This document shows, one piece after another, positions 20,975 to 52,818 of a DNA stretch of 64,000 bases. The position numbers and the translations under genes are program-made. Each line of letters begins with the position of its first letter. The stretch's first letter is position 1. This DNA is from a virus. Taxonomy: Duplodnaviria; Heunggongvirae; Uroviricota; Caudoviricetes. Location of the stretch: IMG/VR virus record IMGVR_UViG_3300022561_000002. One strand, given 5' to 3'. Under the pieces are notes generated by a model, which searched no databases, was not told the DNA's origin, and saw only the letters and a list, made by a program, of their open reading frames with translations.

Positions 20975-22240
20975 TTATAATTTAACTACATTTCTCCTTG
21001 TTTCACCAGTGGAGATATATATATCTTTATACTCCAAGAAACTTGAGCAGAAATCCATAATACCCATTTCAGTTCCTTCTTGCCTTGAAACTAAGATTTT
21101 ATTATTGGTTTCATCTAAATGAGTAATTGCAACAGAGGGATTCATAAAAATATCAATAGTATAATTGGAATTATCTTTAGCATACTTATAAAAATCATCA
21201 AGAATTGCACGTGCGACTAAAGGCTTATCCATATAACCATATCTAAAATGTCCTTGAAATTGATTGGTTTGATTTGTTTTTTCGTTAAAAACTCCATTTA
21301 AACTTGCTTTTGAATAAACCTCTGTTTCGAAAGGGCCCGCCCCATGCCTGGTCGTGTAACTTCTCATTACATAACAAACTTCTATGTCAGAATCTTTAAT
21401 AATATCAGTAGATTTAAGTAATTCTACCACATTTTTAAGACCTGTGTGAGAAGCTGTTAGATGTGGAGAATATTTTTCGAAATCCCAGTCTAATAATAAT
21501 CCCTGAGCTCCTTCAAAAACTATATTTTCATATTTATTTAACATAAACTCGTCACTAGAAACATGAACATAGTTAAGCATGCGCCTTGTGTCTTTAATAA
21601 AATTGTCTATTAAATTATCATTAAAAAATAAGTCCTTTTTTTCTTCAGAGAGACACAGTTCTTCAATCATATCTTTATAATAATTATCTCTAATATTTTG
21701 TAATCTCCATTTTAACTGTCCATCACTTCTCATTACGCAATCTTTGATAGTTAAATGGAAAAGTTCTGATGGATGGCCATTCCTAACAACAGATTCAAAA
21801 ACACCAGCCCCACAGCTTCCATGCCTATTCATTCCTCTTGACTCCTCTTTGAAAATATTAATTAAAGAATCAAAAGGTATAATTACAGTGCTATCACTAC
21901 AAACAGTGACCTTAGGTTTATAATAAACTTCACCTAAGAAGTCTAGTAATTCAATATTAAACTCAATTGGATTAACAATAAACTTTGAAGATAAATACGT
22001 ATCTACACTTTCATTAAAACTGCCTGCCCCTAGTTGTGAAAAAATATGTCTTTTGTCCCAATTAGGAGTAACAACAGTATGACCAGCTTGTGAAGAGCCA
22101 TTAAATCTCACATTTAAAACTCTTTCTTCATTTTTGGATAATTGGTTACAGAAGTAATCAGTCATTAAACCTTTGCCCTCATCTCCAAACATAGCTCCTA
22201 TTACTATTTTTATATTTTTCATACTGTCGCATCCTCCCAT
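20975..22240 (-). CDS. Adenylosuccinate synthetase family protein (PurA, or PurZ-like)
   Basis: P-loop GAMFGDEGKG and SQAGHTVV motifs; 421 aa. Confidence 0.65.
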   Translation of the reverse strand: MGGCDSMKNIKIVIGAMFGDEGKGLMTDYFCNQLSKNEERVLNVRFNGSSQAGHTVVTPNWDKRHIFSQLGAGSFNESVDTYLSSKFIVNPIEFNIELLDFLGEVYYKPKVTVCSDSTVIIPFDSLINIFKEESRGMNRHGSCGAGVFESVVRNGHPSELFHLTIKDCVMRSDGQLKWRLQNIRDNYYKDMIEELCLSEEKKDLFFNDNLIDNFIKDTRRMLNYVHVSSDEFMLNKYENIVFEGAQGLLLDWDFEKYSPHLTASHTGLKNVVELLKSTDIIKDSDIEVCYVMRSYTTRHGAGPFETEVYSKASLNGVFNEKTNQTNQFQGHFRYGYMDKPLVARAILDDFYKYAKDNSNYTIDIFMNPSVAITHLDETNNKILVSRQEGTEMGIMDFCSSFLEYKDIYISTGETRRNVVKL

Positions 22241-29607: not shown

Positions 29608-30327
29608 TTATACTAATTCAATTATATCTTCATATATAGCCCTAATCTGGCTACCAATAGCTTTATCTTCATGCATATGACCAAATATAAACTTCTTAAA
29701 TTGCTCTTTTCCAGCTATGCTGGTGTAAATTGCATCAAGCCAATATGGCAAAAAGTATTCACTAGGTTTCTTCATAAATTCTATTACTCCCACAAATGGA
29801 TATGCCATGGCAAGAGTTTCATGAGAAATTATATATTCAATCTTATCTATGTTCGCTTCAAAAGTTAAACGATATTCTTCCAACTCTTCCATAGTAGGCT
29901 CTTCCGCAGCCCACCAGCTTTTATTTACGGTTCTATATGCTTTATCAGTAGACCTTGCTCCACCAATTGTAAAGATAGTAATACCATCTATAGTGAAGAC
30001 CTGTCCGCGCATTAGGTGTATAACCTGTTCGTTTATATGATGAACCTTTCCACCATTCCATTCACTTATAGGATACTCATTTAATCTATTGAAGTTCTCA
30101 TGGTTACCATCTATAAATAAAACTCTGCATTTTACATTTTTTAGTAACCATTTTAATCCCTCTTGATTTTTATCAAGATAGTGAACTTTATCAAAGTCAT
30201 GCCATATAATACCAAAATCTCCATCAACGATAATATAATCATCGTATGTTAAATCTAAGTTTTTTATTTTTTCAAATTTTCTTTTTAATCCATCTGTTCC
30301 GTGTAGATCTCCCGTATTTAATATCAT
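29608..30327 (-). CDS. Calcineurin-like metallophosphoesterase
   Basis: GDLHG, DGDFG and GNHE motifs. Confidence 0.6.
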   Translation of the reverse strand: MILNTGDLHGTDGLKRKFEKIKNLDLTYDDYIIVDGDFGIIWHDFDKVHYLDKNQEGLKWLLKNVKCRVLFIDGNHENFNRLNEYPISEWNGGKVHHINEQVIHLMRGQVFTIDGITIFTIGGARSTDKAYRTVNKSWWAAEEPTMEELEEYRLTFEANIDKIEYIISHETLAMAYPFVGVIEFMKKPSEYFLPYWLDAIYTSIAGKEQFKKFIFGHMHEDKAIGSQIRAIYEDIIELV

Positions 30328-30342
30328 ATGGTACTCCTTTCT

Positions 30343-30534
30343 TTATTTATATTTCTTTCTAATGTCCTTCCAAAGGTCTGTTAGTGCATCACCAATTATT
30401 ATTGAACCTATTATAACAATTATTGCACCACCAGTTTCTAATAGTAATTTGTTTGCAATTAAATATGTGAACAAACCTACAAAAATTACTCCTATTAAAA
30501 AATTCTTAATTCCTTTTATAACTAAATCCTTCAT
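30343..30534 (-). CDS. Small membrane protein
   Basis: 63 aa, two hydrophobic helices. Confidence 0.4.
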   Translation of the reverse strand: MKDLVIKGIKNFLIGVIFVGLFTYLIANKLLLETGGAIIVIIGSIIIGDALTDLWKDIRKKYK

Positions 30535-30545
30535 GCACTCTCCTT

Positions 30546-31379
30546 TTATACTATACTACATCTTGTTAAAACAGTTTGTTTCACGTCATGATATTCCTTA
30601 TGCTCTTTAACAGTTCCTTTTAATTTATAAACTTGATTTTCATTTAATTTCTTTGAAGCAGTAGACCATATATAAACATTTTCATCTTTATCTAACATTG
30701 TATGTAGATAAGTAGTTCCGTATTTAGTATCAAATGTATATACTGATTTTATAGTAAGCTCTAATTGTACCTTTTGCTTGACTTCAAATTTGAAAACAGA
30801 AGGAGATTCGGGAGTAGTTTGTTTCTTGAACCAGGGTTTCAAATCTAAATCAGACTTTAGAGTTATATATTCTCCCTTTTGCATTGATACATCATCCCAG
30901 TCAACTCTATGCAGTTCATAAGCAGAGTCCTTAGGTTCATATCCACCAAAGAAATACCAACCAAAAGAATTACTAAACTTTGCACCCATATCTTTTAACT
31001 CTTCTCTGATGCTATATGTATTGCCGAGAATAGCCATAATATATCCGTTTTCAAAACCGTTCTTTTCTCTGTACTCTCTATTAGATTCAATTGCATTAGC
31101 TATTCTTTCAGCTTCTCTTTTGTTTCGAAGTTCATCTGCCTTTAACTGCGTTCTCGCGTATTCTTTATCAGTATATGCACGAACATCTAAAGTAACGAAC
31201 CCCTTACCATTACATTTAAAGCAAATTCCATTATAGTTCATCGCCCAAGAGATATGATTAGAGCTGCCAACTCCGCCGCATCTATCACAGGTTTCTTTTA
31301 TCTTAACGTAAGGCTTTCCATCTTTGTCGAAAATTTCACTAATGATCTCTGCATTCTGATACGATTTTGCCACCTTCAT
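30546..31379 (-). CDS. Hypothetical zinc-finger protein
   Basis: CDRCGG...CFKCNGKG motifs. Confidence 0.45.
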   Translation of the reverse strand: MKVAKSYQNAEIISEIFDKDGKPYVKIKETCDRCGGVGSSNHISWAMNYNGICFKCNGKGFVTLDVRAYTDKEYARTQLKADELRNKREAERIANAIESNREYREKNGFENGYIMAILGNTYSIREELKDMGAKFSNSFGWYFFGGYEPKDSAYELHRVDWDDVSMQKGEYITLKSDLDLKPWFKKQTTPESPSVFKFEVKQKVQLELTIKSVYTFDTKYGTTYLHTMLDKDENVYIWSTASKKLNENQVYKLKGTVKEHKEYHDVKQTVLTRCSIV

Positions 31380-31466
31380 TTTAGTACCTCTTTCTCTCTC
31401 TTATTTATTTCCTTACTTTACCTTATAATAAATTATATCATATTTTTTAATCGTTATCAAGAGAAA

Positions 31467-31502
31467 GAAAAAACCCTACGAAATGTATTCGTAGGGTTTT
31501 TA
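31467..31502. terminator. Bidirectional-type terminator downstream of the SPFH gene
   Basis: aaaaaaCCCTACGAAatgtaTTCGTAGGGttttt. Confidence 0.6.
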
Positions 31503-31514
31503 TATATCATTTAA

Positions 31515-32375
31515 TTATTGTGCATTTACAATAGGTGTTCCACCTTGGATAGTAACCCAACCATGTTTTATACGAGCTTCCGCATTCCTCATATCAATTA
31601 GAGCAGGAGTAATAGATGAAGAGATTAGAGTATTTGCCTGCGCTTGACCACGAGCTGCCTCGATAGCCGCATTAGCTTGACCCTGAGCTTTAATAACTAC
31701 AGTTTGAGCTTCAATTGTGATCTTTTGCTGTTCCTGCTTAGCCGCTTCCAGCTCTTGAGCTACTTTACTACGTTTAATCATAGCGTCTTCAATAGATTTA
31801 TCAAGTTTTACTCTTGTAATACTACATGATTCTACACTAATCCCGTATTCTATCAACCTATCAGTCATTACTTTTGTAAGTTCAGTATTTAATTCAGCCT
31901 TTTTATCCATATAACATTCCATTACAGTATATTTTGATGTAACTTCTCCAACATATCTCTTAACTTTAGATTTAATAATGTTATTAACTACATCTTCTCC
32001 ACTCATACCACGATATCTAGTGAATACTTTAGAAACATCTTCTGCTTTAAAACTATAAGCCATTTCAATATCTACATTCATTCTACCATCTTTACAGGAT
32101 ACATCAAAACTCTCATTTGTTGGGCTTCCTTCAGTCTTAGATTTTGTCATTAACAACTGTTCTGTTGCTATTGAGTAAGTAGTAACTTTCTTTGTAGGCG
32201 ATATAACGTGCCAACCCTGTGAAAGCACTTCTTCTTGAATACCACCATTCATGCTATATACAACTCCTACATATCCCTGTGGTACTTTTTTTACCATTGC
32301 TAGAGTAAACCCTAGTGCAATAACTGCTACAATAATAATTCCGATCAATGCCTTAATCCTCTTTGATGTCATCAT
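31515..32375 (-). CDS. SPFH / band-7 (HflK/C- or prohibitin-like) membrane protein
   Basis: TM helix then VPQGYVGVV band-7 signature and a coiled-coil C-terminus; start set at the MMTSKR ATG with an AAGGAG RBS. Confidence 0.55.
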   Translation of the reverse strand: MMTSKRIKALIGIIIVAVIALGFTLAMVKKVPQGYVGVVYSMNGGIQEEVLSQGWHVISPTKKVTTYSIATEQLLMTKSKTEGSPTNESFDVSCKDGRMNVDIEMAYSFKAEDVSKVFTRYRGMSGEDVVNNIIKSKVKRYVGEVTSKYTVMECYMDKKAELNTELTKVMTDRLIEYGISVESCSITRVKLDKSIEDAMIKRSKVAQELEAAKQEQQKITIEAQTVVIKAQGQANAAIEAARGQAQANTLISSSITPALIDMRNAEARIKHGWVTIQGGTPIVNAQ

Positions 32376-32529
32376 TTGTTTTCTCCTTTTGTTCCTCATC
32401 TTCAACGTTTTCTTCTTCTCTAAAAATATCCAGCAATTTATTTGCCGAATCATATATCCAATTGCCACTAAGGGCAGAGATAACTATGGCTACCAAGAAA
32501 ATAATAGCTAAACACATTATAATGAACAT
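32353..32529 (-). CDS. Possible small membrane protein overlapping the SPFH gene start
   Basis: 58 aa ORF MFIIMCLAIIFLVAIV...; weak RBS. Confidence 0.25.
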   Translation of the reverse strand: MFIIMCLAIIFLVAIVISALSGNWIYDSANKLLDIFREEENVEDEEQKEKTNDDIKED

Positions 32530-32573
32530 TATACTAACCCACCAATTTACCTTTCTTATTTAAAATACCGAGC

Positions 32574-34055
32574 CTAGACTGTAATACAGTCATAGGTAGG
32601 GTCACTTAGGGTAGCTACCATTAAGTCATAGGCGCTCTTATCGATGTTATCAATAAGGCTTTTGAACGCAGATGGAGAAGAGCCTGAGATATATTGGATT
32701 TTAGGATTAGTTATTTTTTCAAGGAACGTATCTCTACGAGCCTCTACATTCCACATAACTATTTTTGGCATGTCGTAGCCGGCCGCATTGAACTTCTCTT
32801 CCATTACACTTAAGAATGACCAAGAACGATCGCTGTAGCCAAAGTAATCAATTTCTCCGTCAGATATAACCACAATTGCTTTTGGCATATCTTCCATTGT
32901 TACTTTGTTATCTACTGATGTCTTTAATACTAAGTCTAAAGCTGCCTCTAGGTCAGTATTATCGATTAAAGCTTCGATTCCTCTAACTTTTTCAGCAAGA
33001 GTATCTCCTTTTAATCTAACAAACTTTGGTCTGCTACTGAATGTTAAGAATAAATCCTTAAACTCTCCAGTATTTCTTTCTGCAAAGTACACAGCAAGAG
33101 AAACCGCAGTATTCAATGGTTTTCCTTCCATTGAACCAGAAGTGTCAGCCATAACTAATAGGTTCATTGGTTTTTCTATATAGTTAGGAAGAGCTTTCCA
33201 TTGTAGTTCAGAAATCTTATCATCGTTACAAGATAAGTTATCATTTCTCCAACCACCAGCTCTAACTTCCATAGCTGCGAAAATGTCGTAAGGGTATAGA
33301 GTTGCGGCATTGATTGTCTCTTCTCCACTCTCTACTTTTGCTATGAATCCTTCGAAGGCTTCAGGTACTCTCTTCATGAAGGCAGTTCTATATATAGACA
33401 TAGCTCTAGAAGGAACTTCGTTGAACTTAATTTCAGTCCACTCGTTGTTACTCATACGAGCTTCAACAATATCTATATAATTTCTTAATACAGATAGAGT
33501 TATCCTATATTCTTTTTCAGTAAGACCTAATTTTTTCGCAGTAAGACGTCCAAGAGCACGACTTTTATTTGAAGAAGTATTAGCAGACTTTAACCATTTA
33601 GCTAAAAGACTAATCGAATTACCTGCTGTCATATTCTCAATGTCAAGCATTAATTGTGTGCCAAACATTTCCCATATTTCGCTTTCTAGTGGAGTGCCCA
33701 CTAAAGCATATAAGTCATCCCATCTACCAAAGTCTGCGACAAAAAAGATATTTTTTCTCATAACTTCTGTGTGCTTATTTGCAAGGTGTTTGATTATTGT
33801 TTTGAAAGTCTTTCTCTCTCCTAGTCCGCCTCTGATATTACGGGCATAGAAAGCCATCTTTGTTGCTAACAAAGCATCTTCCTTAAAAGCTTCTTCGAAG
33901 ATTCCAAATACATCATATTCATTTCTATCTCTAATAGAGCCAATTATACCAAACATATCCACTAAAGGACTTTTTGTTGTTACATAAGCGTTTGCTCCAT
34001 TTTCAGTTTTTGTTTTTGTTAGTTCGTTGTTAACTCCATTTACAAATGTGTTCAT
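32574..34055 (-). CDS. TROVE-like plus vWA domain protein (Ro60/Rsr-like)
   Basis: About 300 aa N-terminal region with a YARNIRGGLGERKTF..KHLANK pattern resembling the Ro60 YKQRNGWSHKD..HLK region, then MIDAS ADTSGSM vWA; total 493 aa as in bacterial Rsr. Confidence 0.45.
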   Translation of the reverse strand: MNTFVNGVNNELTKTKTENGANAYVTTKSPLVDMFGIIGSIRDRNEYDVFGIFEEAFKEDALLATKMAFYARNIRGGLGERKTFKTIIKHLANKHTEVMRKNIFFVADFGRWDDLYALVGTPLESEIWEMFGTQLMLDIENMTAGNSISLLAKWLKSANTSSNKSRALGRLTAKKLGLTEKEYRITLSVLRNYIDIVEARMSNNEWTEIKFNEVPSRAMSIYRTAFMKRVPEAFEGFIAKVESGEETINAATLYPYDIFAAMEVRAGGWRNDNLSCNDDKISELQWKALPNYIEKPMNLLVMADTSGSMEGKPLNTAVSLAVYFAERNTGEFKDLFLTFSSRPKFVRLKGDTLAEKVRGIEALIDNTDLEAALDLVLKTSVDNKVTMEDMPKAIVVISDGEIDYFGYSDRSWSFLSVMEEKFNAAGYDMPKIVMWNVEARRDTFLEKITNPKIQYISGSSPSAFKSLIDNIDKSAYDLMVATLSDPTYDCITV

Positions 34056-34123
34056 CTAGATACTCCTTTGGTTCTTCGAGGGAATGCTGTTCGCATCTAA
34101 TTTTGTATATTTCTTATATTATT

Positions 34124-34152
34124 ATTATATAATATTTTAAAAAACTTGTCAA
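34124..34152 (-). promoter_or_regulatory. Sigma-A-type promoter for the Rsr-like gene (-35 TTGACA, 17 nt, -10 TATAAT on the minus strand)
   Basis: Reverse complement reads TTGACAAGTTTTTTAAAATATTATATAAT; abuts the terminator at 34151-34180. Confidence 0.6.
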
Positions 34153-34180
34153 AAAAAGGGTGGTTTACACCACCTTTTTT
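34151..34180. terminator. Rho-independent terminator hairpin flanked by A and T runs
   Basis: aaaaaaaGGGTGGtttacaCCACCtttttt. Confidence 0.6.
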
Positions 34181-34183
34181 ATT

Positions 34184-34273
34184 CTAACATTCAGTATATC
34201 CACAGTGTGGGCAATACCATCCGGGTCCATCTTTAGTCATTTCATTTCCGCATCTGCAACATTCGTGTTTCAT
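34184..34273 (-). CDS. Tiny zinc-ribbon peptide (29 aa)
   Basis: MKHECCRCGNEMTKDGPGWYCPHCGYTEC; between a promoter and a terminator. Confidence 0.3.
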   Translation of the reverse strand: MKHECCRCGNEMTKDGPGWYCPHCGYTEC

Positions 34274-34342
34274 AATTTTATCTCCTTTTTATTCTTATTA
34301 TATCATAAAATTATACTACTGTCTACAAACATTTAATCTTTT

Positions 34343-34418
34343 TGGTAACGGGAGAAAGGATCGAACTTTCATTGTGAGGATCAAAACCTCATGTAATTAA
34401 CCATTATACCATCCCGCT
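34343..34418 (-). tRNA. tRNA-Gln (anticodon TTG)
   Basis: Hand-folded cloverleaf: acceptor AGCGGGA/TCCCGTT, T-loop TTCGATC, encoded CCA. Confidence 0.55.
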
Positions 34419-34501
34419 ATATATGTAGCCGATATTGCGAACTTCCCTCGGCAAACGGGGACCTGTGTTTAAAGAGGTGGCATCATCGACCCTCTAGAAG
34501 C

Positions 34502-34654
34502 TTACGCTTCTCTAGCTGCTTTTCTTGCTTTACGGCAATAAGAGCATCTAATTGGTTCATTTTCAAAACCTTTTTCTTTGTAAAACTCTTGTTCTCCAAC
34601 TGTGAAAGTGAATTCACAACCGCAGTCTTTACATACGATAATTTTATCTGACAT
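34502..34654 (-). CDS. Small zinc-ribbon protein (50 aa)
   Basis: CKDCGC...CSYC with GGAGG RBS; lies inside the tRNA cluster. Confidence 0.35.
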   Translation of the reverse strand: MSDKIIVCKDCGCEFTFTVGEQEFYKEKGFENEPIRCSYCRKARKAAREA

Positions 34655-34798
34655 TTGTATTCCTCCTTTTAGATGGGATAATTCTTTGACCTGTCCATAA
34701 AAGGAGGGTATTAAAAAATTTCCGAGATTATGTGCTGGATTGAGGACCTTAACGTCCCTCTAAGGACAACCGGCTAACCCAGTGATTTTAAAGATTTC

Positions 34799-34873
34799 AC
34801 TAAAATCTTGGCGGATTGAGTAGGATTTGAACCTACAACCCTTCGGTTAACGGCCGAGAGCACCACCGTTGTG
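34799..34873 (-). tRNA. tRNA-Asn (anticodon GTT)
   Basis: Acceptor GGATTGA/TCAATCC, T-arm GTAGG-TTCAAAT-CCTAC, CCA; one mismatch in the anticodon stem. Confidence 0.5.
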
Positions 34874-34877
34874 CTAT

Positions 34878-34952
34878 CAATCCATATTGGTAGGTCTACT
34901 GAGAATCGAACTCAGATGAATGATTTAGAAGACCATTGCTCTGTCCATTGAG
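34878..34952 (-). tRNA. tRNA-Arg (anticodon TCT)
   Basis: Anticodon stem ATGGT/ATCAT with loop CTTCTAA; T-arm CTGAG-TTCGATT-CTCAG; CCA. Confidence 0.65.
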
Positions 34953-34953
34953 C

Positions 34954-35036
34954 TATAAACCTATGGCACCAAAGCGAGGAGTCGAACCCATTGCTAATGC
35001 TTTTGGAGAGCATCCCACGTCCAACGCAGTTTAAAG
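34954..35036 (-). ncRNA. Aberrant 83-nt tRNA-like element (Trp-like CCA anticodon arm, enlarged D region)
   Basis: Acceptor ACCAGAG/CTTTGGT plus CCA; anticodon arm ATGCT-CTCCAAA-AGCAT; weak T-stem; about 7 extra nt in the D region. Confidence 0.3.
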
Positions 35037-35042
35037 TTACTC

Positions 35043-35127
35043 TGGTATGATTTGGAGGAGAGTTAGGGAATCGAACCCTATAAAGTTTGACCTCACGACT
35101 GCGTTCAAAACAGCTTACCACCATTAG
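35043..35127 (-). tRNA. tRNA-Ser (anticodon TGA), type II
   Basis: Long variable arm; anticodon loop TTTGAAC; T-arm GGGTTCGATTCCC; CCA. Confidence 0.65.
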
Positions 35128-35181
35128 TCTACTCTCCATATATATAAGGACTACTACTGAGAGTAGCCCTTATAAGATTAT

Positions 35182-36207
35182 TTATTCAGTTTCTTTCTTT
35201 CTACCAAGTAGCATGATGCCTCCCGCAGATATCAACATTAATCCCATTAATAGTATAAGGTCTAATGAACCTCCTGTTTGTGGAATAACATCTAAAACTG
35301 GTTCTTCTGTTATAACAGCAGGTGGTGTAATTGCAGGCGGTGTAACTATAATTGCAACTGGCGTAACTATAACCGCAGGTGGAGTTACCACAACAGCAGG
35401 TGGAGTTACTATAGTTGTAGTGTGATGATGATGAGTAACTGGTACAACTGGTATAACTGGTACATCAGGCACCTTATATTCATTTACAAATAATACTTCT
35501 TTCGTTGGATTATCTTCATCTATAGTAACTATCATAGATATAGGTGAGGTAATATTTGTATAAGCGTCATCTGCGATATCTACTTCAGTAAAGGTATATG
35601 TTCCATAAGGAAGATTTAATGTTTTAATACCGCCTTCACTTACAGTATCTGAAGTTAAAGGTAAATTCTTTTCTGTTTTTACATAAGTAAATCCGAATGA
35701 TGTGTTATCAACAATATCTACTCCATTACTGTCTATAACATTTTTAATTACTTCTATTGTTCCTACTTGAGGTTCAATAAAATCATTAGTAAAAGTATAA
35801 AACATATCCCCATTAATTTTACCCGTTTCTACACTTGATGGCTCAACTTGAGTATATCCATCATGAGAGACTTCAACAATTTTAAATTTCATATCTCCAG
35901 GAGCATAACTAAATGTTCCAGGAGTTTTCTCGGAAGCTGTAATTGTTGTAAAAGGTTTCCATTCATGTGTCGGAGGCTTAGGTTTTTTTTCAGAAATAAC
36001 ATCTTCTGTTATATTTGCGTCTTGATTAATTTCTCCCCAAACATAAACTTCAAATGTGAATTCTGTAGTATTAGGTTCTACTCCTCCATTTACAATCTTA
36101 TTGATTGTAACAATACCTGGAGTGCACGCAAATGCTGACATCGGAACTGTAAATAATAGGATTAATGCCATAATCAAGATAGTCGAAAGTAATCTTTTTT
36201 TAACCAT
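35182..36207 (-). CDS. Sortase-anchored (IPQTG) cell-wall surface protein with Cna-B/pilin-like isopeptide-type domains
   Basis: N-terminal signal peptide; GTYTFTEVD...AYTNI motif typical of Cna-B/SpaA-type domains; Pro-rich VTPPAV repeats; C-terminal IPQTGG, hydrophobic helix and RKKETE tail. Confidence 0.55.
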   Translation of the reverse strand: MVKKRLLSTILIMALILLFTVPMSAFACTPGIVTINKIVNGGVEPNTTEFTFEVYVWGEINQDANITEDVISEKKPKPPTHEWKPFTTITASEKTPGTFSYAPGDMKFKIVEVSHDGYTQVEPSSVETGKINGDMFYTFTNDFIEPQVGTIEVIKNVIDSNGVDIVDNTSFGFTYVKTEKNLPLTSDTVSEGGIKTLNLPYGTYTFTEVDIADDAYTNITSPISMIVTIDEDNPTKEVLFVNEYKVPDVPVIPVVPVTHHHHTTTIVTPPAVVVTPPAVIVTPVAIIVTPPAITPPAVITEEPVLDVIPQTGGSLDLILLMGLMLISAGGIMLLGRKKETE

Positions 36208-36575
36208 AATTCCATCTCCTTTATAAATAAAGTTTGAATGGAACTCAACGGCAACTACACGACCATGATAAAAATTTTAGGTTGTAGCTTTGCGAGTTTA
36301 TCTTTTGATAAACGTGCCTTTTCGTAATTCCTAAAAAATATAATACAAGGTTGGTTGTGTATCCTTGTATTTTATATAAATTTGAGTTTAATTCGCAACA
36401 TAATAGCTATTGTATGTTTGCATGAAGATTATTCTTTTGCCAATAGGCTTAAACTCCTTACCTATATCTCGTTCTTCTTCAGTTCATCCCGCGAGATCCT
36501 TAAATGAACTATATAAACTCTCTTAAATACCGCGCCTATGCATTCTTACTTTGGAATTTATGCATAACCTACTAT

Positions 36576-36649
36576 TGGTGGACCGGCAGGGAATCGAACC
36601 CTGATGAAATGCTTGCAAAGCACCCATAATCCCGTTATATGACAAGCCC
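36576..36649 (-). tRNA. tRNA-Ala (anticodon TGC)
   Basis: G3:U70 pair present; anticodon loop TTTGCAA; T-arm CAGGG-TTCGATT-CCCTG; CCA. Confidence 0.55.
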
Positions 36650-36653
36650 ATAT

Positions 36654-36727
36654 TGGTAAATCTAACAGGAATTGAACCCGTGTCTCAGCGTTCGTAGCGC
36701 TGCATCCTTCCTCTAGACGATAGATTT
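36654..36727 (-). tRNA. tRNA-Arg (anticodon ACG)
   Basis: Anticodon stem CAGCG/CGCTG with loop CTACGAA; acceptor AAATCTA/TAGATTT; CCA. Confidence 0.6.
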
Positions 36728-36962
36728 ATATTTACTTAGACGCGGCTGTACCAGTTTTCGGCAACTAAGCCTACTAATCTGGGTTCTCATGTCTAAAGCA
36801 AATTTCAATATATTATATTGCAAGTATAATATATTAGGGGATTCTTGCAAAATACCCTTTGTTATTATTAGCTTACCTGTTGCGCAAGTCGCCATAATAC
36901 GGGAATAAGTTATTAGGCATTCCAGGCCTTCTCTTATTTAAGGAGTTGAGAATCTCTTTTTC

Positions 36963-37031
36963 ACACTCAAATGGGAATCGAACCCATGCTGGGGCCGCAA
37001 TGACCGCGTACTTCCATTATACTATTAAGTG
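36963..37031 (-). ncRNA. Aberrant 69-nt tRNA-like element (intact acceptor, D and T arms; truncated or unpaired anticodon region; no encoded CCA)
   Basis: Acceptor CACTTAA/TTGAGTG, D-arm GTAT..GTAC, T-arm ATGGG-TTCGATT-CCCAT, but only 19 nt where the anticodon arm plus variable loop should be. Confidence 0.3.
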
Positions 37032-37130
37032 ATATAAAATACGGTTAGCTTGCTGCTGCAATTTAATTACTTCATCATCGTAAACTAACCGTGGCAGTTA
37101 GCCCGCGGACGGTACTAACGTGATCCCTTT

Positions 37131-37205
37131 TGGTAGACAGTAATGGAGTTGAACCACTCTTGTTCGGATATAAGCCGAATGCACTTACCGATGTACTAAC
37201 TGTCC
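37131..37205 (-). tRNA. tRNA-Ile (anticodon TAT; reads AUA)
   Basis: Perfect anticodon stem TTCGG/CCGAA with loop CTTATAT; acceptor GGACAGT/ACTGTCT; CCA. Confidence 0.6.
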
Positions 37206-37472
37206 ATGAATAATCTTTTTTATGCTTTCTTCAGTTCACCCTTAACAAAGCACTAAGGAGGTTTGTTCTCTTTCACCAACACGGCGGTAGGATTTATCTT
37301 ACGGCCATACCCTACGAAACGGCTTAACTATCTGGCAGGTAAAGCTAATAACCTTGCCTAGCGTGAAGCATCCCGCTAATTAGTTTTTCGTATGTCACTA
37401 ATAAACACCCTTTTAGAGTTTGTTTATACTGGAGTCTCTGTTAGTTCAACGTATTGTTCCAGTGATTGTTTG

Positions 37473-37545
37473 TGGAGCGCCAGGCTGGAATCGAACCAGC
37501 TCTAATGGGGTTGCAATCCATCTTCTCTCCAAGAGAAACTAACGC
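37473..37545 (-). tRNA. tRNA-Cys (anticodon GCA)
   Basis: Anticodon loop TTGCAAC; T-arm GCTGG-TTCGATT-CCAGC; short D-loop; CCA. Confidence 0.5.
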
Positions 37546-37548
37546 ATA

Positions 37549-37809
37549 TTATGGCTTTAATATTTCGCCATATTCTTTTATAATACTTTCTCTATTTTCT
37601 TCTTCAAGAAAAATTACATAAGCCATTATATCAGCATCTAAACCTTCTTCTTCTGCTTGCTCTTCAGTCCCAAAATCATTGGCACGAGAAAATGCTAATT
37701 CATCAGCATATTCATATATACTTTCTATAGACATACCATCAGCGAATTCATATACTTCATCAAAGTCTTCTCCGCAATAGCAAGTTTCTGTTTTAATATT
37801 TAATAACAT
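37549..37809 (-). CDS. Hypothetical acidic protein
   Basis: 86 aa ORF directly downstream of a consensus promoter. Confidence 0.4.
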   Translation of the reverse strand: MLLNIKTETCYCGEDFDEVYEFADGMSIESIYEYADELAFSRANDFGTEEQAEEEGLDADIMAYVIFLEEENRESIIKEYGEILKP

Positions 37810-37851
37810 AATGTCCTCCTTTTATTTTTTCTTGTTTTTTGATTATGATAT

Positions 37852-37880
37852 ATTATACTATATTTTTTAAACTTTGTCAA
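37852..37880 (-). promoter_or_regulatory. Consensus promoter upstream of the ORF at 37549-37809
   Basis: TTGACA-17-TATAAT on the minus strand. Confidence 0.6.
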
Positions 37881-37887
37881 GAATTTT

Positions 37888-37975
37888 TGGCGGAGAAGGT
37901 GAGGTTCGAACTCACGTGCCTATTACAACCTAATTGTTTAGCAAACAATCCTCTTTACCATTTGAGTACTTCTCC
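37888..37975 (-). tRNA. tRNA-Ser (anticodon GCT), type II
   Basis: Anticodon stem ATTGT/ACAAT with loop TTGCTAA; long variable arm; T-arm GTGAG-TTCGAAC-CTCAC; CCA. Confidence 0.65.
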
Positions 37976-38913
37976 ATACAAATTGCGACAATTGGCGTTG
38001 CCGCAATTAGAGTCCTTTTCTACACGTGGTAGATAGGTAATTAAATCCACCATTCTATCGACTATTTACGGTGGCAACCCTGTCAAACAAGGAAAGCTTT
38101 CTTTGTTTGTGGACTTACTGCCATATAATGAATGGTCGCCACTAATTGATTGATTTTATTGTTGTCCGCCAACCCTCCGGCCCATACGTCCGGCAGTGCT
38201 TTTTTTACTTTCGGATTAAAGTGTCAATCCACTCATAATTCAACATTCCATTGCTTGTTTATGTTGACAACCCACTCAAAAACAAGGAGATTACGCTTAA
38301 GTTTTCTCTTGTTTAGGACTTACGACCATTTACGTAAAATGACTGCCTAGATTTTACAGTACCTCTCTTTTGGTGGAGGCTCACCAACTGAATAAATCTT
38401 CCACTTTTTGTATACAGGCAGGAACTCTCCTTTTTTTCAGCTCCCTACTAAGGCAAGGGGTTTCCATTATAATCTTTTGTGTTGCTTGGGTATAACGTGC
38501 CAGGTTTAAGCTACATTAGTTTCCTAATGCTCGCATCTTAAGCGAAGCCTTTAGCAGCCGACTTTCGTCGCTATACACAAAAGTTTTTATTAATGTGGAT
38601 AGGGATTTGCACCCTATATGATATATTCGCTTACAAATTTCATATTCTTTGTAACACATATCTAGTCTAATGTCTACTATTGATAACAATGGAGAACTTG
38701 TTCCAACGTCAATCTTTACCATAGCACGAGCAGGTTATACCCCTCGTAAGGCTATGTCTTTTCCACCACCACATTATTATTTTTTCTTTTTTAACCTTAT
38801 AATATATTATATCATATTTTTTGAAAGTTTGCAATAGAAATTTCAAATTCATGAAGTTTATCTGTGCATAATATGTATATTATTTAGCTTTAAAAAATCA
38901 CTTCTGTCCAAAT

Positions 38914-39123
38914 TTATCTTGATTTTCTTTGGTCGATCTTATACCATATAGTAAGATAAATCACAACCACAGAAGCCAAAGCAAACCCGATCCAAAGTGG
39001 AGATAGAACCCACCACCAACTCCAGCTAATTAAATTAGTAATCTTTAGTATTATAAATATAATAAGTATAACACTAAGAAAACTCATTCCACCTTTATCC
39101 TGTACATCTATTCTATTTTTCAT
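38914..39123 (-). CDS. Small membrane protein
   Basis: 69 aa, two TM helices (WWWVLSPLWIG). Confidence 0.35.
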   Translation of the reverse strand: MKNRIDVQDKGGMSFLSVILIIFIILKITNLISWSWWWVLSPLWIGFALASVVVIYLTIWYKIDQRKSR

Positions 39124-40324
39124 TTTTTTCTCCCGCCTTAAAATTATATATTGGTTTAATTATGCTAACGATGTCTACTGTATCTCCTATACAAGATATG
39201 ATTTCTTCCATTGGTTTATAAGCCATTGGAGCTTCATCAAGAGTAGATTTATTAACAGAAGTAGTATAGATCCCTTCCATTGATTTTTCAAATTCATCAA
39301 GAGTTACTAACTCTTTAGCTTTACTTCGACTCATGATACGACCTGCGCCATGTGGAGCAGAGTAGTTCCAATCAGAATTACCTTTACCAACACATATTAA
39401 ACTTCCGTCTCTCATGTTCATTGGTATGATTAATCTCTCATTTTCATAAGCAGAAACCGCACCTTTTCTCAAGATTCCTGCTCCTACATCAATGTAATTA
39501 TGGATTGTATCAAAAACATCTATTGGTTGATATTTAGTTTTTATATGTGAAAATATCTCTGATACGATGGCACTTCTATTCCACAAAGCAAACTCTTGTG
39601 CAATTTGAATATCGTTTAAGTAATCGTCTAAGTTTCCGCCCTCAAGCCACGATAGTGCTTTGCTGAATTTTGGGAGATTAAATTGTGCAAGTGCTGACTC
39701 AATTTCTTTTTCTTTACCTTTTGCTTTTAAGTGATTAACAATATTATCTCTTTCAAGAGTTCTATTATTTAAAGTTTTAAATGCTAAATCTTGGTAGTAT
39801 TCAGCAATTTGTTTGCCGAAATTTCTACTACCAGTGTGTATAACAACATATATATCCCCAGAGTCATCAGTACAAACTTCAATAAAGTGATTTCCACCAC
39901 CTAAAGTTCCTATACTTAATTTAGCTCTTTCTACATTGATAGCAGAAGAACATCTTAATCTATCAAAATTTACAAAACCAGCGAAAAAGTGGACCTCTTG
40001 CCGCACATTAAAACCAGAAGGTACATATTTTTCAATGACTTCATCTAATTCCTTAACGTCAAAACCGTCTTCTTCTCTTAATTTTACTACCTTCATCCCG
40101 CAAGCGATATCAACACCTACTAGATTTGGCACTATTTTAGTACCCAATGTCATAGTTGTACCTATAGTACAGCCAGCACCAGCGTGTACGTCTGGCATTA
40201 TTCTTATTTGACTTCCTTTAGAGAACTCTTGATTGCACAATTCGATAATTTGTCCAATAGCTGTTTCTTCTATGTTGTCTGTAAATACTTTTGCTGTATT
40301 AAATTTCCCTTTTAGTTCAATCAT
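39113..40324 (-). CDS. rtcB: RtcB-family RNA ligase (3'-phosphate/5'-OH)
   Basis: MPDVHAGAGCTIGTT, GGGNHFIEV and SAPHGAGR RtcB signature motifs. Confidence 0.8.
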   Translation of the reverse strand: MIELKGKFNTAKVFTDNIEETAIGQIIELCNQEFSKGSQIRIMPDVHAGAGCTIGTTMTLGTKIVPNLVGVDIACGMKVVKLREEDGFDVKELDEVIEKYVPSGFNVRQEVHFFAGFVNFDRLRCSSAINVERAKLSIGTLGGGNHFIEVCTDDSGDIYVVIHTGSRNFGKQIAEYYQDLAFKTLNNRTLERDNIVNHLKAKGKEKEIESALAQFNLPKFSKALSWLEGGNLDDYLNDIQIAQEFALWNRSAIVSEIFSHIKTKYQPIDVFDTIHNYIDVGAGILRKGAVSAYENERLIIPMNMRDGSLICVGKGNSDWNYSAPHGAGRIMSRSKAKELVTLDEFEKSMEGIYTTSVNKSTLDEAPMAYKPMEEIISCIGDTVDIVSIIKPIYNFKAGEKNEK

Positions 40325-40337
40325 TTGCTCTCTCCTT

Positions 40338-40580
40338 TTATACTATTTCATATATATCAGTTAGCTTCTCACCAGCGTTTATTCGATTTTGTCTAATAAT
40401 AATAGACTCTAAAATTCTCATTCCAGCTGCTTTATCTTTATAATTTGCGATTTCTGACGCAGAACTTTGGTCTTTGCCAGCCAGTAATATAGATATACCA
40501 TCTTCTTTAAGACCAACAGTAACTAAATGAAAATATTCACAATTTACTATCATAGTTTTATTTTTACTTCTAACCCACAT
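40338..40580 (-). CDS. Hypothetical protein
   Basis: 80 aa ORF. Confidence 0.4.
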   Translation of the reverse strand: MWVRSKNKTMIVNCEYFHLVTVGLKEDGISILLAGKDQSSASEIANYKDKAAGMRILESIIIRQNRINAGEKLTDIYEIV

Positions 40581-40604
40581 TTTGATCTCTCCTTATTAAT
40601 ATAT

Positions 40605-40811
40605 TTAAAATGGTGTAGTATCTGCTATTTGATGTACTTGTCCTTCTTCTTCTTCTTCTATAACTTCAGCAGTAGATTCAATTACATCATCAAAGTGAAG
40701 ACTATTTTCTTCTTCTGCTTTTACCATATCGTCTATATTATGACCTACACTAAACAAAGCCATTAAATCTTCCATTCCATACATATTATAATCATTATAG
40801 AAATCACCCAT
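40605..40811 (-). CDS. Hypothetical acidic protein
   Basis: 68 aa ORF, Glu-rich C-terminus. Confidence 0.35.
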   Translation of the reverse strand: MGDFYNDYNMYGMEDLMALFSVGHNIDDMVKAEEENSLHFDDVIESTAEVIEEEEEGQVHQIADTTPF

Positions 40812-41331
40812 TGTAATACCTCTTTATTTCATCAAAATTTATCGGAGTGTAGTTAATCATTTCAACACTAACATTATAATATAAATTCTTTCCGTCACTA
40901 TTTAATAATGTTTGTGTCGTATTATGTATATGTCCATGAATATTCACATATGGAATACTCGGATTTAAAAATACAGGTTTGTGTGAAGCAATATAAAATT
41001 CTTCAACTATAATCGTGTTTCTCGATACTTCTTCGAATCCTGCCGCAAGATATAAAGCAACAGATCTATCGTGATTACCACGAACCATTCTCTTTCTACC
41101 ATTTAATTGTTTAGTAAAAAATTCAATTTGTTCTGCTCCGCCTAAACAAAGGTCACCAAGAAAATAAACTATATCAGTGTTTTTAACAACAGAATTCCAA
41201 TTTTTTATAATCGTTTTATTCATTTCTTCTACTGATGTGAACTCTCTATTACAATATTGCATAATATTCTTATGATTAAAATGTGTATCCGAGATAAAAA
41301 ACGTTTTAGTGTTGCCACCCATATAATCCAC
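40804..41331 (-). CDS. Calcineurin-like metallophosphoesterase
   Basis: FFISDTHFNH, GDLCLGG and RGNHD motifs. Confidence 0.6.
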   Translation of the reverse strand: MDYMGGNTKTFFISDTHFNHKNIMQYCNREFTSVEEMNKTIIKNWNSVVKNTDIVYFLGDLCLGGAEQIEFFTKQLNGRKRMVRGNHDRSVALYLAAGFEEVSRNTIIVEEFYIASHKPVFLNPSIPYVNIHGHIHNTTQTLLNSDGKNLYYNVSVEMINYTPINFDEIKRYYNG

Positions 41332-50519: not shown

Positions 50520-50595
50520 TTGGAGTGCAAGGAGGGAATCGAACCCTCATCTACTGGGTGGAAGCCGGTAATATTAAGCCGTTATACGACTCGCA
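50520..50595 (-). tRNA. tRNA-Gly (anticodon TCC)
   Basis: Acceptor GTGCGAG/CTTGCAC; anticodon loop CTTCCAC (one stem mismatch); T-arm GAGGG-TTCGATT-CCCTC; CCA. Confidence 0.55.
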
Positions 50596-50898
50596 CATAT
50601 TTTAGTGGCAGAACTATTTTGCTTTAATGAGCGTATATGTTCACTTGTTGACTATTCGGAATCTTAGAAATTGATTTTCGGACCGCGCTATAGGTTGTCG
50701 AAACAGTATCGCCGCATTAGTTAAGTATGCGTGGGCTTTGTTAGCCTATATACCATTTAATCTCCTTTTGCTTAGTAGAAGACACACTTTTCCTAAAACC
50801 AAACAACTTTAATTCTCCCAAACTTTCAGTCGCCACTTGGCGCATCTTATTTTAACGACTAGGTGCCAAAGTCGAGTGTATGTACTGGGCACTGCCCA

Positions 50899-50973
50899 TG
50901 GAGCCACCGATAGGAGTCGAACCTACAACCTGCTGATTACAAATCAGCTGCTCTACCATTGAGCCACGAGGGC
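50899..50973 (-). tRNA. tRNA-Thr (anticodon TGT)
   Basis: Anticodon stem GCTGA/TCAGC with loop TTTGTAA; T-arm GTAGG-TTCGACT-CCTAT; CCA. Confidence 0.6.
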
Positions 50974-51042
50974 ATATAACAAGACACAGTTTGTTTCTAT
51001 CAAATAAGAATTTTTTTAGTTGCTGTTCGTGTCTTTAATTTT

Positions 51043-51120
51043 TGGGGGGATAGATGAGATTCGAACTCACAATTTAATAGATTCACAATCTACCGCGTCT
51101 GCCCATTCCGCCACTAACCC
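51043..51120 (-). tRNA. tRNA-His (anticodon GTG)
   Basis: Anticodon stem GTAGA/TCTAT with loop TTGTGAA; 3' end ...CCCCCCA consistent with a His C73/extra 5' residue arrangement; one acceptor mismatch. Confidence 0.5.
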
Positions 51121-51421
51121 TATGTAGTAAAGAGAGGAGAAAATAAGGGCCACTTTAGGTGTGATTCCCTCGAAAAGTCCTTAATCTCAAGCTTCTTATT
51201 CACTCGGCCTTCCAGCCTCGGGCTACACTCCCGTTTCCGCAGAGAGCGACTCTACATCTAGACTTAGCCATAACTCCAAAAGTCGAAACTAAGGGTCAAC
51301 TTCACTAAATCTAAGTTCATATGCGGGGTGAATGAACTCCACTGTCAAGGTGGAGATAGAAACCCTATCACGCTTTGTTTCTTTACCATTCCATCTTATT
51401 GTATATGGTTAAACCCAATCA

Positions 51422-51520
51422 TGGGCACAAGGTTGGAGTCGAACCAACTCAACACGATCTCTCATAAAGCAACTGTAAGGCTTTATTACTTCCCGTTCCC
51501 CGCCGTCGGGTATCTTGCGC
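51422..51520 (-). ncRNA. Aberrant ~99-nt tRNA-like element (canonical acceptor, T-arm and CCA; extra GC-rich insert on the 5' side)
   Basis: Acceptor GCGCAAG/CTTGTGC; T-arm GTTGG-TTCGACT-CCAAC; internal AAAGC-(9 nt)-GCTTT hairpin; no standard cloverleaf. Confidence 0.3.
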
Positions 51521-51523
51521 ATG

Positions 51524-51592
51524 TGGTGCGAAAGGTAGGACTCGAACCTACAGCGTTTCTATGTCACTGATTTACAGTCAGCTTGCTTCGCC
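51524..51592 (-). ncRNA. Short (~68 nt) noncanonical tRNA-like element, anticodon unclear
   Basis: T-arm GTAGG-TTCGAGT-CCTAC and CCA end are clear; acceptor pairing is imperfect; anticodon arm reduced to ACTG-TAAAT-CAGT. Confidence 0.3.
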
Positions 51593-51611
51593 AATTTGCA
51601 TACTCGCGCAT

Positions 51612-51687
51612 TTGGTGGGAAAACTTGGTATCGAACCAAGATCTTTCGGGCTTCAACCGAACACATAAACCATCTATGTTATCTTCC
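51612..51687 (-). tRNA. tRNA-Phe (anticodon GAA)
   Basis: Anticodon stem TTCGG/CCGAA with loop TTGAAGC; acceptor GGGAAGA/TTTTCCC; T-arm CTTGG-TTCGATA-CCAAG; CCA. Confidence 0.7.
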
Positions 51688-51781
51688 CATGTGGATAGTT
51701 TAACGTCAATATCTAGGACGACCTCTGGAGAGGCTAGCAAGCCAGGTGACCTATGGTTACTTTATACTCTTAACCAAGAGT

Positions 51782-51859
51782 TGGTGATATTAGTGGGCCT
51801 CGAACCCACAGAACTCTACCGTGAAAGGGTAGCGGCTTTACCAATTTGCCCATAATACC
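51782..51859 (-). tRNA. tRNA-Glu (anticodon TTC)
   Basis: Anticodon stem CTACC/GGTAG with loop CTTTCAC; T-arm GTGGG-TTCGAGG-CCCAC; acceptor GGTATTA/TAATATC; CCA; 6-nt variable loop. Confidence 0.5.
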
Positions 51860-51862
51860 ATG

Positions 51863-51938
51863 TGGTGCTTACAGCAGGGTTCGAACCTACGACTTCTTCC
51901 TTGTAAGGGAAGCACTCTACCAACTGAGTTATGTGAGC
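51863..51938 (-). tRNA. tRNA-Val (anticodon TAC)
   Basis: Anticodon stem CTTCC/GGAAG with loop CTTACAA; T-arm GTAGG-TTCGAAC-CCTGC; CCA. Confidence 0.6.
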
Positions 51939-52086
51939 AGGGGACCCCGTATATGTGTTAGTTGTTAACTATTAAACTAACTTTTATCCTATCAGGAAAG
52001 ACTACGAGGTCAGAGCCTTGATCAGTACTTACAACGAGGGATCGATATCATCATAACCATATTGATTGCATTTATAGCCTGCCGGC

Positions 52087-52161
52087 TTGGCGACGAATGC
52101 GAGAATTGAACTCGCGTCTCACGGCTGACAACCGCGCATGTTGACCACTATACCAAAACGC
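52087..52161 (-). tRNA. tRNA-Asp (anticodon GTC)
   Basis: Anticodon stem CGCGG/CCGTG with loop TTGTCAG; T-arm GCGAG-TTCAATT-CTCGC; CCA; imperfect acceptor stem. Confidence 0.5.
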
Positions 52162-52266
52162 CATATATATAGAAGTTTTTTATGTTGTCACATATTATTC
52201 TTCCCGAGTGGACTGCTTTAATTCCATATCCGCAAATTAGAATGAAACCGATTAGACAACTAGGTC

Positions 52267-52370
52267 TGGTGGAGACGATGGGAATTGAACCCATGTCCAA
52301 AACATATACTACTAATACTCCTTTTACGCTCTTGCTTTCGTTCGATCAGGTCTCAGGCTGCACCACCAAT
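52267..52370 (-). ncRNA. Aberrant ~100-nt tRNA-like element with a long bulged 5'/3' terminal helix (Y-RNA-like candidate)
   Basis: T-arm ATGGG-TTCAATT-CCCAT and CCA present; the 5' GGTGG...GAGAC segments pair with 3' GTCTC-CACC around a bulge; no anticodon arm recognisable. Confidence 0.3.
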
Positions 52371-52810: not shown

Positions 52811-52818
52811 GATATAAT

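Follow-up and report, generated by a model that had tools for sequence, protein, structure and literature searches.

A c-di-GMP riboswitch candidate and a headless sortase substrate: a probable host-derived cassette in the tRNA region of a large phage

What does a gene for a wall-anchored, pilin-like surface protein do in the middle of a tRNA cluster of phage DNA, and how is it controlled? This question was raised by the viral record IMGVR_UViG_3300022561_000002 (Caudoviricetes), of which a stretch of 64,000 nucleotides (nt), hereafter the window, was analysed. The gene in question occupies 35182..36207; coordinates refer to the window, and every feature located in it below lies on the minus strand. 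An earlier annotation made from the letters of the sequence (the original prediction) had described the product as a sortase substrate serving lysogenic-conversion-like surface remodelling or superinfection exclusion, but it missed a riboswitch in the 5' leader of the gene, which is the main regulatory feature of the locus. Our analysis indicates that the locus is probably a host-derived cassette, in which a class I cyclic di-GMP (c-di-GMP-I) riboswitch precedes the gene of a "headless" sortase substrate, placed in the tRNA/RNA-repair region of a large Bacillota phage and working by the mechanism proposed below.

The c-di-GMP-I aptamer (Rfam RF01051) was located at 36247..36328, 39 nt ahead of the start codon, and is the sole riboswitch in the window. 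Its score of 50.3 bits is above the gathering score of 35 (E = 7e-7 for the whole window and 5e-9 for the region), and binding of c-di-GMP is predicted from this match. In the cmscan alignment the G at model position 11 (36318), the CGCAAAG core and the 3' CC were all kept. We take the G at 36318 to be the equivalent of G20 in Vc2, following a Vc2 numbering map (G20, A47, C92) that we assume here, and a cyclic GMP-AMP (cGAMP)-type GEMM-Ib aptamer is unlikely since the G20 equivalent is a G. Aptamers were also found upstream of related genes in other loci. On the contigs L001 and L002 they lie directly upstream of the homologues (50.4 bits with the c-di-GMP-I model), while the gene for P0003 on L004 is preceded by a match to the c-di-GMP-I-GGC variant model (61.8 bits against 59) and the gene for P0006 on L006 by one to the c-di-GMP-I model (78.2 bits). 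The loci of two further relatives, P0008 and P0009, have no riboswitch upstream. When the upstream regions of the window and L001/L002 were aligned, the leader was better conserved than the coding sequence.

The coding sequence specifies a sortase-type wall-anchored protein of 341 amino acids (aa) with two CnaB-type domains. It starts with an ATG at 36207, which is preceded by a Shine-Dalgarno sequence (SD), AAGGAG, at 36216-36221. The public gene call, P0001, has 329 aa and begins at Met13, which drops the charged n-region of the signal peptide (36172-36207); the ribosome-binding site (RBS) and all homologues support Met1 at 36207 as the likely true start. The predicted Sec signal peptide (residues 1-27, 36127..36207) was read from the sequence as MVKKR, a hydrophobic core of 18 residues and the putative cleavage site AFA↓C. 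The Kyte-Doolittle maximum falls at residues 1-17 and a helix spans residues 2-20 in the AlphaFold2 (AF2) model, in agreement with the signal peptide originally proposed. The homologue P0002 is identical at 24 of the 27 positions, and homologous signal peptides were also found in P0003 and P0008. The only cysteine of the protein, Cys28 (36124-36126), comes right after the predicted cleavage site; it is kept in P0002 (AYA↓C), is absent from the bacterial relatives, and resembles a weak lipobox. A lipoprotein is noted here but not favoured, since AFA↓C makes a poor lipobox and the Cys is missing from the rest of the family, and a thioester (TIE) adhesin was ruled out by the single Cys, located at the mature N-terminus.

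Domain 1 (residues 33-142, 35782..36111) matched Pfam DUF7601 with 33.5 bits against a cut-off of 27, and domain 2 (residues 158-243, 35479..35736) matched the Pfam SpaA/CnaB-type family with 24.2 bits against 23.1. The motif quoted in the original prediction, YGTYTFTEVDIADDAYTN, corresponds to residues 201-218. Each domain has a candidate isopeptide triad, K37/E112/N141 in domain 1 and K155/E208/N242 in domain 2, and both Lys/Glu/Asn triads are invariant across the closest homologues. Over 30 domain-2-like segments taken from 21 relatives, the Lys was kept in 29, the Glu in 27 and the Asn in 16 of the 16 where it was aligned. CnaB-type Lys-Asn bonds form with the help of a Glu (PMC3132780). 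A conserved KKPKP...W motif lies in a loop of domain 1 (residues 58-85) that is modelled with low confidence. In the AF2 model the mean predicted local distance difference test (pLDDT) score is 61.9, with 70-83 in the domains and less than 40 in the stalk. Its top Foldseek match was the B. anthracis TIE adhesin, followed by 4oq1, L. rhamnosus SpaA and GBS52 (E 2e-10 to 1e-7), and a direct sequence search of the PDB returned the same adhesin and pilin families as weak matches. Taken together, the Pfam and Foldseek matches point to a prealbumin-like/CnaB beta-sandwich fold.

Downstream of the domains, residues 246-306 (35290..35472) form a stalk rich in Pro, Val and Thr by composition (Pro 23%, Val/Ile/Thr 54%), and residues 308-341 (35185..35286) form a cell-wall sorting signal. 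On re-examination the C-terminus reads IPQTGG-SLDLILLMGLMLISAGGIMLLG-RKKETE, that is, the motif, a hydrophobic segment of 22 residues and a charged tail. It matched the NCBIfam model TIGR01167 (LPXTG_anchor) with 21 bits against a cut-off of 15.9, while Pfam Gram_pos_anchor remained under its cut-off (14.5 against 20). Among all six-frame ORFs (open reading frames) of the 64-kb window this is the sole C-terminus resembling a sorting signal. With DUF7601, SpaA and TIGR01167 above their cut-offs and Foldseek in agreement, the ORF, its class as a sortase-type substrate with CnaB/pilin-like domains and its Pro-rich stalk all stand as first described. A virion decoration protein was ruled out, because a protein with both a signal peptide and a sorting signal is expected on the host wall. 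A PHROG search of the protein gave only a weak match (E = 0.13), to a profile of 38 residues that covers the hydrophobic anchor segment. Two features of the stalk were also recorded. Near its start there is a THHHHTTT segment (residues 258-265, 35413-35436), whose His run is conserved family-wide (HHHH in P0002, KKHHDE in P0003, HHHRD in P0008, and RHHD in the protein encoded upstream in L004) and might bind metal. Just ahead of the sorting signal there are four TPPA[VI] Pro-Pro repeats (residues 267-299, 35311-35409), in place of which P0002 has four EPP[VI]V repeats.

The origin of the cassette was approached through its relatives. A word-indexed search of 5.8 billion proteins returned only P0001, which is the protein itself, and P0002, which is 55% identical and has the sorting motif LPQTGG. 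When 1.84 billion representatives were searched exhaustively with HMMER, 26 matches had E <= 1e-3 and only three of these were below 1e-30; the protein family is rare. P0002 is encoded on the short, phage-like contigs L001/L002 just downstream of tRNA-Cys and tRNA-Gln, and since tRNA genes adjoin both copies, its neighbourhood is of the same kind as that in the window. Between the window copy and the L001 homologue the synonymous divergence (dS) is about 1 and the ratio of nonsynonymous to synonymous divergence (dN/dS) is 0.34 (0.11 in the signal peptide); a dN/dS of 0.34 at this dS argues for selection on the protein.

P0003 (759 aa) and P0006 (638 aa) have in common with the phage protein the last two domains, the stalk start VPDVPVIP...HH and the anchor (LPKTGG), and P0003 is 41% identical to it over residues 88-338. 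Both carry an extra N-terminal region of about 450 aa in which no Pfam family was matched. The gene for P0006 adjoins nrdD, nrdG and trmB in a Bacillota metagenome-assembled genome (MAG), and that for P0003 adjoins a trmB-like gene and lies behind a gene for another LPKTGG protein. L004 in fact encodes tandem LPKTGG surface proteins (1-684 and 1198-3477) with identical sorting signals, of which the second, P0003, has a riboswitch of its own. P0008 and P0009 have the same signal peptide and a ...GR(R/K)KETE tail, but the motif VPQTSD, and a class B sortase is encoded directly after P0008 (TIGR03064, 204.8 bits against a cut-off of 153.75). From these comparisons, the phage protein looks like a shortened, "headless" copy of a bacterial adhesin that consists of signal peptide, stalk and anchor, and the riboswitch and gene together appear to be a unit of bacterial origin that had escaped the original prediction. 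Phage collections gave no second copy: no match was obtained with tblastn of the protein against 50,697 phage records, with megablast of the surrounding 15 kb or blastn of the leader against phage collections, or in IMG/VR scans using the protein and the neighbouring DUF2828 protein as queries. A genome scan found one locus, in a Bacillota MAG, and a metagenome scan with the family alignment found only the P0009 locus and two weak matches beside 5S rRNA, none with a riboswitch.

The boundaries of the cassette could be drawn from the same comparison. The gene lies within a block of ten same-strand tRNA genes and is flanked by tRNA-Ser(UGA) downstream (35053..35137) and tRNA-Ala(UGC) upstream (36576..36649), so the reported position inside a phage tRNA cluster is correct. 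Identity between the window and L001 rises from a background of about 0.4 to 0.55-0.90 from about 36330, declines as the 3' end of the ORF is approached and has reached background again at the stop codon. Since the homology is confined to this span, the transferred unit would be the riboswitch plus the ORF, and the gene appears to behave as an inserted cargo cassette extending from about 36331 to 35182. The G+C content of the gene (0.30-0.37) is no different from that of the window (0.33).

A phage moron is defined as an independent transcription unit with its own promoter and terminator (PMC3594210), and the gene had been called a moron-like insertion on these grounds. The insertion part of this claim is favoured by the discrete boundaries and by the absence of the gene from phage records and from the block of Enterococcus phage H1 that corresponds to this tRNA/RNA-repair region. 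The transcriptional part found no support in the window. Just past the stop codon there is a hairpin of 13 bp (35143..35174, -16.6 kcal/mol), but it is followed by AUAUAUAU without a U-tract, its z-score against shuffles is -1.45, and a terminator scan did not call it. The only sigma-70-like site upstream is the weak TTGCGA-18-TAAAAT at 36369..36398, whose 9 matches of 12 are at chance level (8 such sites were found, against 10.3 expected by chance). A near-consensus promoter, TTGACT...TGATATACT, was found only in the related L001/L002. At 690-740 and 1910-1960 of L001, and at the equivalent places of L002, there are near-consensus extended -10 promoters of the form AAAACACTTGAC[T/A]AG ... TG[A/T]TATA[C/A]T, one ahead of the riboswitch and one right behind the stop codon; the window shows no enrichment of this motif. 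Right before the aptamer of the window, and past the weak promoter-like site, a small hairpin (ACAAGG/CCUUGU with a 12-nt loop, followed by a run of U6; 36334-36369) may terminate tRNA transcripts or belong to the leader.

How the aptamer could control the gene was examined in the four leaders that carry one. The distance from the end of the aptamer to the AUG is 31-40 nt in all four loci, which leaves no room for a terminator, and a transcription-terminator platform was thereby ruled out. Instead, a switching sequence lies just 3' of the aptamer (AGUUCCAUU at 36237..36245 in the window, AAUUUCACU in the other loci) that can pair with either of two partners. One is the proposed 5' strand of helix P1 (36326..36331), which reads GGAAUU in the window and GAAAUU or GAGAUU in the other loci. 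The other is the RBS-proximal arm between SD and AUG, which reads GAUGGAAUU in the window (36208-36216) and GAG-A-UGAAAU elsewhere and would be one arm of a sequestering hairpin; this arm and the SD (36216-36221) together take up 36208..36221. Unconstrained minimum free energy folds of the ligand-free RNA contained the RBS-proximal hairpin in all four leaders. Across the leaders, pairing is retained in 100% of P1 cells and 95% of hairpin cells, and in the window one position of the switch has gone from U to C, matched by A>G in both the 5' strand and the 3' arm, which makes a single coordinated change of three parts. When P1 was forced, at a cost of 5-7.5 kcal/mol, the SD region became more likely to be unpaired in each of the four leaders. 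Since the switching sequence is common to P1 and the RBS hairpin, translational ON control is predicted: the ligand would stabilise P1 and free the RBS. This fit is fragile, and the statistics behind it are weak. Searching IMG/VR for the pattern of the expression platform yielded six matches, all attributable to chance and none with a riboswitch.

These observations can be joined into a proposed mechanism. The leader RNA, whose aptamer is assigned by homology, would bind host c-di-GMP. When no ligand is present, AGUUCCAUU would pair with GAUGGAAUU between SD and AUG and occlude the RBS; when ligand is present, it would be pulled into P1 with GGAAUU, which would free the RBS and turn translation on. 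The protein would then be exported by the Sec pathway and cleaved after AFA, its two CnaB-type domains would lock themselves through K37-N141 bonds assisted by E112 and K155-N242 bonds assisted by E208, as the conserved triads suggest, and a host sortase, possibly of class B as beside P0008, would cut IPQT↓G and join Thr311 to peptidoglycan. The expected outcome is a stalk-only protein on infected cells at high c-di-GMP, that is, in the sessile state of the host. The likeliest benefits to the phage would be a remodelled surface that hinders further adsorption, or infected cells that are kept in aggregates; simple adhesion seems less likely than surface remodelling, because only stalk-type domains were kept. 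The protein might also shield receptors, vie for sortase or lipid II with the adhesins of the host, or behave as a basal pilin, and we rank a stand-alone wall protein first and incorporation into a pilus second. It is conceivable, though we hold it only tentatively, that a large and probably virulent phage reads host c-di-GMP in this way and that, in sessile or biofilm cells only, sortase coats the wall with a headless pilin-like stalk. Such a stalk might block the adsorption of rival phages, compete with adhesins or pili of the host for sortase and anchoring sites, or hold cells in an aggregate near new hosts, and the system would then be a second-messenger-conditioned takeover of the surface during infection and not lysogenic conversion.

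Several observations weigh against the reading of a host-derived cassette under c-di-GMP control. The aptamer of the window is divergent, with AAAA in place of a GNRA loop in P2 and a shortened P3, and scores 50 bits against 78 in the bacterial copy. As for the expression platform, between 150 and 175 of 500 shuffles did as well in covariation, which was computed on three distinct sequences only, and the SD falls for the most part into the loop of the sequestering hairpin. Confidence in the AF2 model is only moderate. No sortase (TLxTC signature) was found anywhere in the window; no motif of a diguanylate cyclase or PilZ protein was seen in it either, so phage-encoded c-di-GMP enzymes or PilZ receptors were rejected as part of the system. 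Finally, no capsid, portal, terminase, tail or lysis gene was seen among the window ORFs scanned.

The points on the aptamer and the statistically weak covariation would suit a riboswitch that acts as an OFF switch or is a non-functional relic, with expression coming from phage promoters or from read-through of tRNA transcripts. Most characterised class I c-di-GMP riboswitches of C. difficile are indeed OFF switches (PMC6366702). However, the two phage copies are close to saturation at synonymous sites and yet conserve aptamer and platform, with a leader identity of 0.70-0.90 in 60-nt windows against about 0.4 in the flanks, and both copies exceed the Rfam gathering threshold. The G at 36318, presumably the counterpart of Vc2 G20, the core and the 3' CC have been retained, and the geometry of the shared switching sequence predicts ON. 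We therefore regard an OFF switch or relic as unlikely, although it is the best-surviving of the alternatives.

Less probable still is a pilin-type subunit, basal or ancillary, that would be built into host pili, or would cap them, by the action of a pilus sortase of the host (of class C, or of class B as in S. pyogenes). The pneumococcal shaft pilin RrgB, which is handled by class C sortases, has exactly IPQTG as its sorting motif (PMC5640630, PMC3132780), and the structural matches of the phage protein include 4oq1, GBS52 (3phs), SpaA (5f44), SpaE (6jk7) and Spy0128 (3b2m). A small two-domain protein with a Pro-rich tail ahead of its sorting signal, a conserved Lys-rich loop in domain 1 (KKPKP, residues 74-78) and a relative, P0008, beside a class B sortase would also suit a pilin. 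However, the sequence has no YPKN or WxxxVxVYPK motif and no YPK at all, and neither a sortase nor a second protein with a sorting signal is encoded in the 64 kb. The riboswitch-bearing relatives P0003 and P0006 are head-plus-stalk proteins of 640-760 aa with housekeeping neighbours and no pilus operon. CnaB domains are as typical of the stalks of non-pilus adhesins, and the best Foldseek match was such an adhesin, that of B. anthracis. The preferred reading thus remains a stand-alone wall protein under riboswitch control.

Whether the DNA is that of a phage was judged from gene content and relatives, because structural and lysis genes are missing within the window. All ORFs of at least 120 aa with a family match lie on the minus strand, and small ORFs are scattered among 26 tRNAs and a transfer-messenger RNA (tmRNA). 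The products encoded include RecJ, primase, DnaB, GyrA/B, a class II ribonucleotide reductase (RNR), a ligase and a Sak4-like protein, besides RtcB, phosphoesterases, a Ro60-like DUF2828 protein and an adenylosuccinate synthetase of the PurZ type. Many ORFs matched PHROG families without an assigned function (among them phrog_2367, 2971, 30451, 20637, 5848, 9897, 20187, 18912 and 34186). The DUF2828 protein matched 710 phage records, the best named ones being Bacillus phages of about 165 kb, and a 241-aa protein at 58549-59274 matched, within the phage collection, only Enterococcus and gut phages of about 135-142 kb. In Enterococcus phage H1, tRNAs are interleaved with genes for a phosphoesterase, a protein of about 498 aa and cyclic-phosphate processing. 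That the window is a piece of bacterial chromosome, plasmid or other element carrying an ordinary bacterial surface protein is very improbable: GyrA/B, DnaB, RNR and RecJ are found in bacteria too, no virion, packaging or lysis gene was seen among the ORFs scanned, and the IMG/VR scans did not return the contig, but the one-sided strand, the tRNAs and tmRNA amid small ORFs, the PHROG matches, the phage-restricted 241-aa protein and the H1-like layout of DUF2828, RtcB and phosphoesterase genes with tRNAs all speak against it.

Phage DNA is thus well supported, if not proven, by the gene content of the window, and the gene is placed in the early region of a large phage. A low-G+C Gram-positive bacterium (Bacillota) is the best explanation for the host. 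Lysogenic conversion, which the original prediction had suggested, finds no support: no integrase was seen among the window ORFs scanned, and the closest cultured relatives are Enterococcus phages of about 140 kb; the contig itself measures 73 kb.

The components of the cassette have counterparts in known systems. In B. thuringiensis the c-di-GMP-I riboswitch Bc2 is a genetic ON switch before the LPXTG collagen adhesin Cap/CbpA, which is thus produced when c-di-GMP is high (PMC4933901, PMC7423583). As in the window, a class I c-di-GMP riboswitch there leads a gene for an LPXTG-anchored CnaB-type protein. However, Bc2 works through a terminator and antiterminator, whereas in the window only 39 nt separate aptamer and AUG and the platform looks translational; Cap is chromosomal and has a collagen-binding A domain, whereas the phage protein has only two stalk-type domains, and no sequence relationship between them was found beyond the domain family. 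In C. difficile the sortase substrates CD2831 and CD3246 are switched on by c-di-GMP riboswitches in a system with the protease PPEP-1/ZmpI (PMC6366702, PMC3649979). They are similar in having Pro-rich sequence near the anchor and a class B sortase, as beside P0008, but differ in that their riboswitches are of class II and their genes are chromosomal. The TPPA[VI] repeats of the phage protein recall in their position the PPEP-1/ZmpI sites close to the anchors of CD2831 and CD3246, but the motif is different, and no PPEP gene was seen in the window. PPEP-1 sites have the form (V/I/L)NP↓PVP.

Phage-borne precedents are found for the protein and for the RNA separately. SasX/SesI, an LPXTG surface protein on a staphylococcal phiSPbeta-like prophage (PMC7047976), is likewise a phage-borne sortase-anchored protein that alters the host surface, but it is carried by a temperate prophage, acts in lysogens, has no riboswitch and is not homologous. 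The C. difficile prophage riboswitches Cdi1_4/Cdi1_5, which are of the c-di-GMP-I class and belong to a PhiCD119-type lysis module (PMC3649979), place class I c-di-GMP riboswitches on phage DNA and indicate that phages can read host c-di-GMP; there, however, the phages are temperate and small lysis-module genes follow instead of a surface protein. Pilins such as RrgC (4oq1), GBS52 (3phs), SpaA (5f44) and RrgB resemble the phage protein in several ways: their CnaB-type domains stand in tandem and carry Lys/Glu/Asn triads, the tail is rich in Pro, and the sorting motif is non-canonical (that of RrgB is IPQTG). Foldseek E-values are 1e-9 to 1e-7, but identity is 10-17% and the phage gene has no YPKN motif, pilus operon or class C sortase nearby. 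Each component thus has a precedent. For the combination as one phage cassette we found none: a riboswitch-gated, truncated sortase substrate on a large tRNA-rich phage was not met in the 50,697 phage records, the PHROGs or the literature searched.

The proposed cassette implies that a phage makes a change of the infected cell wall conditional on the motile-or-sessile decision of its host. If functional, it would show concretely how a phage can tap into a second messenger of bacteria to control a surface phenotype, and its product would be a naturally occurring sortase substrate reduced to the stalk, with the potential to disturb host adhesins or pili. It would also mean that riboswitches travel from host to phage together with their genes. 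The system is small, an RNA of 85-95 nt and a protein of 341 aa, and is easily tested.

Some other features of the window were noted. The tmRNA gene (52267-52569; Rfam 87.7 bits), with the tag peptide DNEYQLAA, lies inside a second tRNA block of 16 tRNAs (50521-53818); tmRNA genes are unusual phage cargo. The adenylosuccinate-synthetase-like protein at 20975-22240 has phrog_1211 (PurZ-type) as its best PHROG match (E = 1e-52), and such a protein could indicate a 2-aminoadenine (Z) genome. The RNA-repair set among the tRNAs (29608-41331), laid out as in Enterococcus phage H1 (L016), includes a Ro60/TROVE-like DUF2828+VWA protein (32574-34055), RtcB (39113-40324), two phosphoesterases (29608-30327 and 40804-41331) and a treble-clef zinc protein (34502-34654). 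An SPFH/Band 7 protein (31515-32468) and a proteasome-subunit-like protein (13289-14053) are further cargo. A SleB-like cell-wall hydrolase (Hydrolase_2) is encoded at 9696-10349, and such an enzyme fits a spore-forming Bacillota host.

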